Of a stretch of 64,000 bases of DNA, positions 56,873 to 59,241 are shown piece after piece. Source of the DNA: a virus. Its lineage: Duplodnaviria; Heunggongvirae; Uroviricota; Caudoviricetes. Within the stretch, counting starts at the first letter, position 1. Each line of letters begins with the position of its first letter. The notes under the pieces were generated by a model. It had not been told where the DNA came from. It searched no databases and saw only the letters and a list, made by a program, of their open reading frames with translations. A program made the translations under genes and the position numbers. The stretch lies in the IMG/VR virus record IMGVR_UViG_2565956614_000003; one strand, given 5' to 3'.

Positions 56873-57871
56873 TTATCCGTTACCGCGCGACGGTTTCTGC
56901 GTGACAAACGTCTCAAGCATCTTTTCCGCAATTGCCGACCAGGTGTGACACTGGACCTTTTCAGCATTTTTCACGCGATCAACGCGAGCAATAACCTCAT
57001 CCCAATCAATCCGCGACTTGATAACCATATGGTTCACCAAAGCCAGGCGATCTGGCGGAAGGCAATCGGGAGGCGTTAATACCAACGCCCCGCACATTGC
57101 CGCCTCAAGTACAGTTAATCCAAGGCTTTCGGGATGCGTAACGATAAACACGTCACTCTTACGCAATTCAGCTGCAAATTCGGTTGCTGGCACCGGCGTC
57201 CGTCTGTATGGAGTTACCGAAATATTCCCCGGATCAATGGTAACCAATCCGTCATCAGTCAACGTTCTGGCCTCATACGGAACGGTCAGACGCTGAAGGT
57301 TCATAAGGATACTTAAGGAGTGATCAAAACCACTAACATCAAATGCAGCGTGGTCTACAAAAATACGCAGAACATCGTCTGTTTTGGTTTCCAGATGGAA
57401 CAGATCCTGATTCGCTGCCCATCCAACATGTTTGTTAAAACGATTATGACGCTCTAACCTGCCTGGATTATCCAGGTACCGCCAGGTATCATCGCGGACA
57501 GTAAAAGTAATATCGACTGGTGCCGAATCCAGCATAGAACCGTCGTATACCTGGGCTACCCATCCAGTGAATCGACGACGCAGTTGCACGCCTATTTCCC
57601 TGGGCACCGTAGTAAAATACCGCAATCCTGGCGCTAAAATGGCTTTCGCAGAACACGAGGTCGCAGCGGTCAACACAGCTTCAACATAATCCTCCGGGCT
57701 TTCGACGCCGGGGGAATATGGACGATGGTATTGCAATGTTACCCCTGCCTCACTAAAGGCGCAGGCCAGGTTGTAAGCCCACATTTCCGTATATGTTTTC
57801 ACATCACTGATAGCTTCAAATTTTCGCCCAATGATCAGGATGTTCATCGGCTTTTCCTCATTCCATTGCAT
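56873..57871 (-). CDS. GT-B fold glycosyltransferase (GT4-like)
   Basis: 332 aa; C-terminal motif HPESLGLTVLEAAMCGALVL; start codon shares ATGA with ban stop. Confidence 0.6.
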   Translation of the reverse strand: MQWNEEKPMNILIIGRKFEAISDVKTYTEMWAYNLACAFSEAGVTLQYHRPYSPGVESPEDYVEAVLTAATSCSAKAILAPGLRYFTTVPREIGVQLRRRFTGWVAQVYDGSMLDSAPVDITFTVRDDTWRYLDNPGRLERHNRFNKHVGWAANQDLFHLETKTDDVLRIFVDHAAFDVSGFDHSLSILMNLQRLTVPYEARTLTDDGLVTIDPGNISVTPYRRTPVPATEFAAELRKSDVFIVTHPESLGLTVLEAAMCGALVLTPPDCLPPDRLALVNHMVIKSRIDWDEVIARVDRVKNAEKVQCHTWSAIAEKMLETFVTQKPSRGNG

Positions 57872-59241
57872 TAATAATCCTCTTGCCAGTCAGCACCAGC
57901 ATAGTTATCAAACCGTGAGTATTGGCCGTTAAAAGCCAATCTCACCGTGCCAATTGGGCCATTTCGTTGCTTTCCGATAATTACCTCGGCAATGCCCTTC
58001 ATTTCGCTATCCGGGTGATAAACTTCGTCGCGATACAGAAACATGATCAGGTCTGCGTCCTGCTCAATTGCTCCTGATTCACGTAAATCTGAATTTACCG
58101 GTCGTTTGTCCGCACGCTGTTCAAGCGATCGATTAAGTTGTGACAATGCCACCACCGGTACTTGTAATTCCTTCGCCAAAGCCTTCAGTGAGCGAGAAAT
58201 CTCGGCAATTTCCAGCGTTCGGTTATCTTGCAGCTCGGGGACGCGCATAAGTTGCAGGTAGTCGATCATAATCATGCTCAAACCACCATTTTCTTTATAA
58301 ACACGACGAGCGCGGGAACGAAGCTCTGTAGGTGTCAGGGCGCTTGAGTCATCAATAAAAATATTCTGCTTGTCCAACAGAATCCCCATTGCGCCAGAAA
58401 CCCGCGCCCAATCCTCGTCGTTAAGTTGCCCTGTTCGAATACGAGTCTGATCAACGCGTGCAAGAGAAGCCAGTGAGCGCATCATCAGCTGGTGGCTCGG
58501 CATCTCAAGGCTAAAAACCAATACGGGCTTATCGTTACGGACTGCGGCATTTTCGACGAGATTCATCGCAAACGTAGTCTTCCCCATCGATGGGCGGGCG
58601 GCGACAATAATGAGATCGGACGCCTGAAGTCCTGCCGTCTTCTTATTGAGATCGGTAAATCCGGTATCAAGCCCCGTTACACCATCATGCGGTCGCTGAA
58701 ACAACTCTTCTATGCGAGATACCGTTGCATCGAGAATGCTGGCGATATCTTTTGGACCACTACCGCTCTTTTGTCGTTTTTCAGCTATTTCAAAAACGCG
58801 GCGCTCGGCCATATCCAGCAATTCATTGCTGCCCCTGCCATCCTGCGCATATCCAGCTTCAGCTATTTCATTTGCGACGGAAATCATTTCACGAACAACC
58901 GCGCGTTCACGAACGATATCCGCATAAGCACAAATATTTGCCGCGCTGGGCGTGTTCTTTGACATCTCCGCAAGGTACGCAAAACCACCGGCGCGTTCTA
59001 ATTTACCGTTCTGTTCAAGTGCTTCAGCAAGTGTTATCAAATCAATCGGTTTGCCATGACTTAATAACCTCTCCATCTCACTGAAAATTTCACGATGAGC
59101 ACTGGTATAAAAATCATCAGCAACTATACGATCTGCAACTTCATCCCAGCGGCAGTTATCAAGCATTAAGCCACCAAGTACAGCTTGTTCTGCACTAAGG
59201 GAATTTGGCATGGATTCAAGAGGGGATGCAGACATTAGCAC
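57871..59241 (-). CDS. ban: Ban, DnaB-family replicative helicase
   Basis: 456 aa; Walker A ARPSMGKTTFAMNL, DnaB N-terminal domain. Confidence 0.92.
   Translation of the reverse strand: MLMSASPLESMPNSLSAEQAVLGGLMLDNCRWDEVADRIVADDFYTSAHREIFSEMERLLSHGKPIDLITLAEALEQNGKLERAGGFAYLAEMSKNTPSAANICAYADIVRERAVVREMISVANEIAEAGYAQDGRGSNELLDMAERRVFEIAEKRQKSGSGPKDIASILDATVSRIEELFQRPHDGVTGLDTGFTDLNKKTAGLQASDLIIVAARPSMGKTTFAMNLVENAAVRNDKPVLVFSLEMPSHQLMMRSLASLARVDQTRIRTGQLNDEDWARVSGAMGILLDKQNIFIDDSSALTPTELRSRARRVYKENGGLSMIMIDYLQLMRVPELQDNRTLEIAEISRSLKALAKELQVPVVALSQLNRSLEQRADKRPVNSDLRESGAIEQDADLIMFLYRDEVYHPDSEMKGIAEVIIGKQRNGPIGTVRLAFNGQYSRFDNYAGADWQEDY

Follow-up and report, generated by a model that had tools for sequence, protein, structure and literature searches.

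Dbn, a predicted GT-B glycosyltransferase encoded behind the helicase gene ban of P1-like phage-plasmids, as a displaced member of a probable phage glycosyltransferase cassette

Retaining glycosyltransferases of family GT4, such as PimA/PimB', BshA, GlgM, WaaG and WaaB, are GT-B enzymes of 350-400 aa. In phages, the T4 alpha-glucosyltransferase (GT72) and beta-glucosyltransferase (GT63), and the clusters that build glycans on 5-hydroxymethylcytosine (5hmC), are co-encoded with a source of hydroxymethyl-pyrimidine. The Gtr modules consist of a membrane flippase (GtrA), a bactoprenol glucosyltransferase (GtrB) and GtrC, and are expressed from the prophage. In bacteria, an MptE-like catalytic core is found both in WaaZ, which transfers the third 3-deoxy-D-manno-octulosonic acid (Kdo III) to the lipopolysaccharide (LPS) core of Escherichia coli K-12, and in Maf, and the W/Y capsule polymerases of Neisseria meningitidis join a GT4 hexosyltransferase domain to a sialyltransferase domain and belong to ABC-transporter capsule loci. 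Here we analyzed a window of 64,000 nt, the whole stretch of DNA considered, from the Caudoviricetes record IMGVR_UViG_2565956614_000003 of IMG/VR. Our subject is its gene dbn ('downstream of ban'), which follows ban, the gene for a DnaB-type replicative helicase. We find that dbn is a displaced member of a conserved glycosyltransferase cassette, not a helicase accessory, and that its adjacency to ban is a rearrangement of the P1 lineage.

Dbn shares 10-15% sequence identity with the retaining GT4 enzymes and, at about 324 aa, is shorter than they are; the glycine-rich loop and the diphosphate-binding Arg/Lys usual in GT4 are not invariant in the alignment of its family. Whereas Gtr modules are expressed from the prophage, the cassette in P1 is C1-controlled or late. 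The Neisseria polymerases are mirrored, by description, in pairs of MptE-like and Dbn-like genes and in one fused protein described below, but their sialyltransferase domain belongs to a different family, and the phage cassette comes without transporter genes.

Identity and predicted fold of Dbn

Two co-directional open reading frames (ORFs) of 332 and 456 aa occupy the minus strand between positions 56873 and 59241, the shorter directly 3' of ban, as a first-pass annotation of this DNA had described. Judged from its sequence, the 332-aa ORF (999 nt, 56873..57871, minus strand, the extent annotated in P1) is virtually certain to be dbn of a P1-like, RCS47-type phage-plasmid. Megablast against phage genomes matched the full-length 999-nt ORF in 18 records. 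Conservation among the P1 references, which remained to be checked after the first pass, holds at 95.7-99.2% DNA identity: 99.2% in RCS47, where the label is 'putative glycosyltransferase, Dbn' (RefSeq: 'glycosyltransferase family 4 protein'), 99.0% in Salmonella phage SJ46, 96.8% in P1 (NC_005856; P1_gp078, 'function unknown, possible glycosyltransferase') and 95.7% in P7 ('glt: encodes putative glycosyltransferase'). P1 Dbn, P7 Glt and RCS47 Dbn are the same gene with the same neighbours, ban upstream and the convergent baseplate gene 5 downstream, and the window has the gene order of P1, namely tRNA genes, ban, dbn and then convergent 5, 6, 24, 7, 25 and 26. It differs from P1 as an RCS47-type variant: the segment 5' of ban is of RCS47 type, with another gene in place of tciABC. 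Both dbn and its label as a putative glycosyltransferase have been in databases for years, and a glycosyltransferase gene behind ban is, as originally stated, already known. PHROGs places Dbn in phrog_2518, of unknown function, and no paper giving Dbn a function was found in the literature searched.

A 90%-identity cluster that is 97% identical to the window protein holds 2431 member sequences, and full-length homologues outside the P1 group are 39-58% identical to Dbn. A profile search among 1.84 billion cluster representatives returned 376 relatives at E <= 0.001, most of them 300-340 aa; the family is small and distinct (376 representatives at 50% identity). The full-length homologues and the 376 profile matches together indicate that the 332-aa ORF is a real gene and not a chance frame.

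The first-pass annotation had proposed a GT4-type C-terminal motif and a GT-B-like N-terminus, and both proposals were borne out. The EX7E donor-site motif ESLGLTVLEAAMCGALVL lies at 57077..57130 on the minus strand (residues 248-265, with E248 and E256 as its glutamates; 332-aa numbering throughout). In 17 homologues down to 38% identity, E248, S249, G251, E256, A257, A258 and G261 are invariant, and across 80 members that reach down to 24% identity D173-H174, H246, E248, G251, E256 and G261 do not vary. The concern that the motif might prove spurious on alignment therefore did not hold. The motif region is also the part that matches Pfam Glycos_transf_1 and the Protein Data Bank (PDB) entry 8xsg.

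Taken by itself, the sequence signal for a glycosyltransferase is borderline. Dbn matched Pfam Glycos_transf_1 (PF00534) in its C-terminal part only, with 25.0 bits against a gathering threshold of 26.4 (E 1.5e-5); the precomputed Pfam column gives PF00534 for P0001, a representative 97% identical to the window protein. NCBIfam yielded no significant match (best E 0.019). The glycosyltransferase call is decided by the fold evidence. An AlphaFold model built on the 17-homologue alignment (predicted local distance difference test score, pLDDT, 88; predicted template modeling score 0.84) has two beta/alpha/beta halves, that is, the two Rossmann-like domains with a cleft between them that characterize GT-B. 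Foldseek placed GlgM, sucrose-phosphate synthase, PimB' and BshA at the top of its matches, and T4 beta-glucosyltransferase was not among the top 60; the closest structural relatives of Dbn are not DNA glycosyltransferases. The best PDB sequence match of the Dbn profile was 8xsg/8xsh, a glucosyltransferase of Actinobacillus minor that we take to be part of an adhesin N-glycosylation system.

The model and the intact EX7E motif make it very probable that Dbn is a soluble GT-B glycosyltransferase of about 324 aa and of the retaining GT4 type. With a pI of 5.7 it is mildly acidic, and it lacks a transmembrane segment. Judged from the 80-sequence alignment alone, the family has no invariant Arg or Lys; D173-H174 and H246 are invariant instead. 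In typical GT4 enzymes, Arg/Lys at the start of the C-terminal domain bind the donor diphosphate; as such residues are not invariant here, the donor chemistry of Dbn may be somewhat different. Fusion to a second GT1-type domain, or to a methyltransferase domain, is seen in some members of the family; such fusions are common in polysaccharide synthesis.

Neighbourhoods of Dbn homologues and the partner proteins

Profile scans of viral contigs returned almost solely P1-like loci, with L121 as the exception, and those of genome contigs returned three loci. No DnaB gene adjoins a Dbn homologue in any non-P1 phage or bacterial locus examined. The neighbours of phage Dbn homologues belong to PHROG 4603 ('alpha-2,3-sialyltransferase'), PHROG 2111 and PHROG 1962 ('glycosyltransferase'), the first two with sub-threshold Pfam MptE-like matches. 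When these neighbours were compared with the window by tblastn, they aligned to 50875..50342, 50378..49767 and 49081..48416, which correspond to P1 pmgO, pmgP and pmgQ, respectively.

By phmmer, each of the seven non-P1 phage loci whose flanks were long enough has homologues of PmgO, PmgP and PmgQ, and so does phage EP_H11. The set is contiguous in five cases (L004, L165, L164, L006 and EP_H11), although its order varies: O-P-Dbn-Q in L164 and the isolated coliphage EP_H11, O-P-(189 aa)-Dbn-Q in the lambda-like L004 and L165, and P-Dbn-Q-O in L006. In the lambda-like phages the cassette stands 3' of a Q-type antiterminator gene and directly 5' of the terminase and head genes. In the phage-plasmids L003, L005 and L121, which also share pmgM, pmgR and pmgS with P1, the set is about 5 kb apart. 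Clustering of the flanking proteins left the PmgO, PmgP and PmgQ families as the sole ones common to all neighbourhoods. Similarly, distant metagenomic members (25-36% identity) have a PmgQ-like gene directly downstream (L225, L226, L231) or MptE-like genes nearby (L188, L214, L230). In P0091, a metagenomic protein of 522 aa, a PmgO-like domain (residues 22-219, E 2e-35) is fused to a Dbn-like one (219-520, E 2.6e-42), which is 'Rosetta-stone' evidence that PmgO-like and Dbn-like enzymes work together. P1-like phages have the set split: pmgO-pmgP-ppp-pmgQ occupy 48380..50938, and some 6 kb separate them from dbn in its place behind ban. We consider it likely that PmgO, PmgP, Dbn and PmgQ form a functional cassette.

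Pairs of MptE-like and Dbn-like genes also occur in bacteria. On a Colwellia contig, on chromosome 3 of Brucella pseudogrignonensis and on two metagenomic contigs, the pair stands amid genes for KpsM/KpsT/KpsD-like export and GT4 enzymes; these are ABC-transporter capsule loci. In L169-L171 it lies in a glycosyltransferase cluster with an acyltransferase.

The partners in the window are all encoded on the minus strand. pmgO (50276..50938) specifies a predicted Maf/MptE/sialyltransferase-like transferase and pmgP (49752..50378) its MptE-like paralogue. The PmgO model (pLDDT 86) had Maf as its best structural match, and the predicted fold is that of enzymes using ulosonic acids activated by cytidine monophosphate (CMP). 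Pfam WaaZ_KDO_III matched the PmgO homologue P0218 and the MptE-like genes beside bacterial Dbn homologues. PmgO and PmgP share the MptE-like core of WaaZ and Maf; however, K-12 WaaZ gave only a short, low-probability local alignment to the PmgO/PmgP profile, and PmgO (about 200 aa) corresponds to the catalytic core alone of the 632-aa Maf, without its substrate-binding domains. pmgQ (48380..49081) encodes a GT-A-type transferase with a DxD motif (GT8/GT77-like): its profile matched AgtA (6mw5, E 3e-5) and, more weakly, LgtC and glycogenin (GT77/GT8), and 'YxDxD' is invariant. Between pmgP and pmgQ lies ppp (49078..49770), annotated in P1, whose product is a lambda-type Ser/Thr phosphatase (Pfam Metallophos, E 9e-16). 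The maximum 19-residue hydropathy of Dbn, PmgO, PmgP and PmgQ is 0.86-1.53, below the level of a transmembrane helix.

Two other kinds of module were considered for these genes. A Gtr-like seroconversion module was rejected because there are no membrane proteins among Dbn, PmgO, PmgP and PmgQ, and a component of a defence system was rejected because PADLOC gave no match for any of the four.

Some features of the cassette genes vary between genomes. The listed pmgO ORF (220 aa) overlaps pmgN, and roughly its first 20 residues are an extension that homologues lack and that has low pLDDT; the real start of pmgO is probably further downstream, and SJ46 annotates a 166-aa version. ppp fills the slot between pmgP and pmgQ where a Dbn homologue sits in EP_H11, L164, L004 and L165, while L003-type phage-plasmids have pmgO-pmgP-pmgQ with nothing in between, which suggests gene replacement or shuffling at this slot. 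A fifth gene of about 190 aa stands directly 5' of the Dbn homologue in L004 (7435-8004), L165 (9435-10004) and L225 (6423-7004); it has a weak Pfam Nucleotid_trans (GT-A-like) match and is absent from P1-like phages. In L003 (6806-8001), L005 and L121, what comes before the Dbn homologue is neither ban nor the cassette but a pair of overlapping genes without an assigned function (231 and 167 aa; PHROGs 8514 and 15291).

The ban-dbn junction and its transcription

ban occupies 57871..59241 on the minus strand (456 aa from a GTG at 59241), with strong Pfam matches to DnaB_C (E 1e-107) and the DnaB N-domain (E 3e-35). The P1 ban coding sequence is 6 nt shorter than this ORF, so that its annotated ATG falls near 59235, two codons into the ORF. 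Read on the minus strand, the junction is GAT TAT TAA TGC AAT GG. The ban stop TAA (57873..57871) and the first dbn ATG (57871..57869) thus overlap by one base in TAATG, and not in the ATGA given by the first-pass annotation.

The annotated dbn start differs between phages, P1 using the first ATG and P7 an internal one, and our comparison favours M9. All non-P1 homologues begin at the equivalent of M9, with 'MKILIIG' in the alignment. Among P1-like loci of IMG/VR, 73 of 80 have the junction of the window, but the other seven (L081-L087) match only from residue 9, and their sequence 5' of the M9 ATG is wholly unrelated to the window. Because non-P1 homologues start at M9 and L081-L087 diverge just upstream of it, M9 is the conserved start. 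The true dbn start is therefore probably M9 and not the first ATG, giving a candidate coding sequence of 324 aa that begins 'MNILIIG' (56873..57847, minus strand). A GAGGA Shine-Dalgarno sequence, read directly from the window (57855..57859, minus strand), precedes the M9 ATG (57847..57845) with a 7-nt spacer. This ATG is 23 nt past the ban stop, a gap close enough for re-initiation.

L081-L087 carry an inserted ORF of 101 aa between ban and dbn (for example L083:9699-10004), which comes with an AAGGAGA ribosome-binding site of its own. Its start overlaps the ban stop, its end overlaps the M9 ATG as ATGA, and PADLOC gave no match for it. With this insertion in 7 of 80 loci, even the P1 group does not conserve the direct abutment of the two genes. 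Of the helicase pairing put forward in the first-pass annotation, the tight, co-directional arrangement with no terminator in between stands. Its presentation as unexpected or functionally meaningful is not supported, given the seven interrupted loci, the lack of a DnaB neighbour outside P1 and the fact that the gene was already known.

ban and dbn are on the same strand and are almost certainly co-transcribed. In the 46-nt gap between dbn and the convergent gene 5, an 11-bp GC-rich hairpin with A/T-run flanks (56827..56853) folds as RNA with a free energy of -19.7 kcal/mol (z -4.6), and none of 200 shuffles was as stable. From its sequence it is likely to be a bidirectional terminator ending the ban-dbn transcript. 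It went unlisted in a simple scan for terminators, perhaps because extending the stem absorbs the T run. In RNA-seq of P1vir, ban and dbn were both up at 20 min in hfq-deleted cells (bioRxiv 10.64898/2025.12.28.696737).

Operators and promoters were taken from the annotation of the P1 record and not from the window sequence. That record gives C1 operators at ban, and the Oppp operator and the late promoter LPpmgL for pmgN-Q. It also predicts promoters P1dbn and P2dbn inside ban, for which our sigma-70 scan offers no support (one promoter-like site, against 4.2 expected by chance). The C1-controlled and late promoters of P1, together with the position between Q and terminase genes in lambda-like phages, indicate that the cassette product is made in lytic growth.

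Upstream of ban (59521-60668, minus strand), P1 tciA, tciB and tciC are replaced by an ORF of 275 aa that has a lipoprotein-type signal (LTGC) and by a hydrophobic one of 78 aa, as in RCS47, where the 275-aa product is called a 'putative serine protease'. A tRNA with a CAT anticodon lies at 59521-59596; ARAGORN reads it as Met, and P1 labels its own CAT tRNA upstream of ban tRNA-Ile2. At 61597-61749 on the minus strand, adjacent tRNA-Thr(TGT) and tRNA-Asn(GTT) genes match trnT and trnA of the leader region of the P1 ban operon.

Candidate acceptors and the proposed role of the cassette

The explanation that we favour, with a probability of roughly 0.45 as a whole, treats Ban and Dbn as functionally unconnected: Dbn would ride on the C1-controlled ban transcript, made in lytic growth. 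Dbn would transfer a hexose-type sugar from a nucleotide-sugar donor and retain its configuration; in series with it, ulosonic acid would be added by PmgO and PmgP and another hexose by PmgQ, such that the four enzymes together would build a short acidic glycan. To our knowledge, CMP-Kdo is the only such ulosonic-acid donor in E. coli K-12. As the most likely acceptor we envisage a glycolipid or polysaccharide of the host envelope that is synthesized at the cytoplasmic side of the inner membrane, for example the Kdo/inner-core region of LPS. The LPS outer core is the receptor of P1, and a WaaZ-like addition to the inner core may block its completion, a step proposed in part from what is known of WaaZ.

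Experiments on P1 bear on these genes. P1CMclr100 derivatives with an in-frame deletion of dbn, pmgO, pmgP, ppp or pmgQ were infectious (Gonzales et al. 2022, PMC9024508). Table S3 of that source lists 'normal restriction' for these deletions on EcoA, EcoB and EcoK hosts, which represent type I systems only, and Dbn is absent from the virion proteins of its Table S4 (PMC9024508). The restriction sensitivity that the first-pass annotation had suggested as a deletion phenotype is thus, for dbn and in this table, normal on all three hosts. A genome-wide CRISPR interference (CRISPRi) screen found dbn, pmgO, pmgP and pmgQ non-essential (Piya et al. 2023, PMC10695390).

That the acceptor is an envelope glycan and not a protein is a tentative choice, at somewhat less than even odds. 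It is favoured by the size of PmgO and PmgP, which fits WaaZ-like capsule-locus enzymes (219-248 aa) and not Maf, by the portability of the cassette across unrelated virions with no acceptor gene travelling along, and by the capsular context of the bacterial homologues. The alternative that the cassette glycosylates a protein, most plausibly a virion protein (capsid, tail or tail fibre) in lytic growth or else a host protein, is rather less probable. In a Maf-like manner, PmgO and PmgP would attach ulosonic acid to Ser/Thr, for Dbn and PmgQ to extend. The late or lytic operons fit this proposal, the P1 pmg genes lying beside tail and baseplate genes under LPpmgL and the lambda-like cassettes directly before terminase and head genes, as does the Actinobacillus minor enzyme as the best PDB match of the Dbn profile. 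Dispensability in the laboratory fits a virion-glycosylation role as well; the capsid and tail glycosyltransferases of mycobacteriophages are likewise dispensable for plaques. However, PmgO comprises only the core of Maf, and the same cassette (50-65% identity) serves a P1-type myovirus, phages with lambda-type heads, EP_H11 and L003-type phage-plasmids, accompanied by no conserved candidate acceptor gene. Dbn itself is not among the virion proteins of Table S4, and the sections consulted of the liquid chromatography-tandem mass spectrometry study of the P1 virion do not mention glycosylation, which was not looked for there. Phage DNA as the acceptor, glycosylated as in T4 or with 5hmC glycans and so shielded from nucleases, was among the roles suggested in the first pass, and we regard it as very improbable; that the acceptor is something other than DNA is a fairly confident conclusion. 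The phage GT-B enzymes that glycosylate 5hmC resemble T4 beta-glucosyltransferase, BshA, MshA and PglH in fold searches, and sequential glycosyltransferases and Kdo and heptose glycans on 5hmC have been reported (bioRxiv 10.1101/2023.12.21.572611). P1 Dmt is, moreover, annotated with possible C5-cytosine methyltransferase activity, and dbn shares an operon with a replication gene. Such DNA routes need an adjacent hydroxymethylase acting on deoxycytidine or deoxyuridine monophosphate (dCMP/dUMP), or a C5-methyltransferase with a TET-like dioxygenase (bioRxiv 10.1101/2023.12.21.572611). In contrast to the T4 and 5hmC systems, no hydroxymethyl-pyrimidine source is annotated in the complete P1-like genome SJ46, and the precomputed Pfam matches in the 8-10 kb around the cassette of L003-L006, L164 and L165 include none, although not all hypothetical proteins were scanned. 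Dbn is net acidic, its bacterial homologues lie in capsule loci, and the deletions of dbn, pmgO, pmgP and pmgQ listed in Table S3 are restricted normally. P1 DNA is also cut by ordinary restriction enzymes.

Two further readings concern whether the gene pairing or the enzymes matter at all. A functional pairing, in which Dbn modifies Ban, a replisome protein or a replication intermediate and coupling fixes the Ban:Dbn ratio, can draw on the overlapping or near-adjacent stop and start and the co-transcription in 73 of the 80 P1-like loci. We consider it scarcely credible, since an inserted gene breaks the junction in the other seven without loss of dbn, no other phage or bacterial homologue adjoins a helicase gene, the conserved partners are glycosyltransferases, and ban and dbn are each dispensable. 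An idle cassette in E. coli K-12, whose donor or acceptor would occur only in other hosts (encapsulated strains or producers of sialic or pseudaminic acid), or a degenerate Dbn, would be consistent with the lack of a phenotype for any single deletion or knock-down in the sources considered, with the atypical phosphate-binding residues and with the homologues in capsule loci of other bacteria. It is nevertheless improbable in view of the strong conservation of Dbn, with 2431 members in its 90%-identity cluster and an active-site motif invariant family-wide, and of the retention of all four genes together in many lineages.

Several points weigh against the envelope-glycan explanation that we favour. 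Dbn falls just below the Pfam Glycos_transf_1 threshold, and the alignment shows no invariant Arg or Lys. Maf, the closest structural match of PmgO, acts on a protein (flagellin), and when the profiles of PmgO, PmgP, Dbn and PmgQ were compared by hhalign with individual WaaZ, WaaG and WaaO sequences of E. coli K-12, only short, motif-level matches with probabilities of 5-8% resulted, which we treat as leads. Known phage modifiers of LPS or O-antigen are mostly produced from the prophage, whereas the cassette lies in lytic operons, and LPS made in the latent period cannot replace LPS already in the outer membrane. Finally, the normal plating of single deletions and the non-essentiality in CRISPRi mean that no phenotype indicates any acceptor.

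What the present analysis adds is context: pmgO, pmgP and pmgQ, filed as 'putative morphogenetic' in P1, join dbn as one testable unit, a link that was not found in the literature searched. Reading them as one unit explains why single-gene screens for plaques and type I restriction saw nothing, and the practical value is modest unless the target proves unusual. In its most specific form, which we put forward as possible though rather doubtful, the four enzymes would be a portable cassette of temperate enterobacterial phages that, during lytic growth, turns CMP-Kdo and uridine diphosphate (UDP)-sugars of the host into an acidic oligosaccharide containing Kdo, with the virion or the LPS inner core as its candidate target. 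If this is true, a virion target would be the first glycosylated coliphage particle, and remodelling of the inner core would leave the P1 receptor incomplete on the dying cell. Either outcome would give a function to four P1 genes long filed as 'putative morphogenetic' or unknown.

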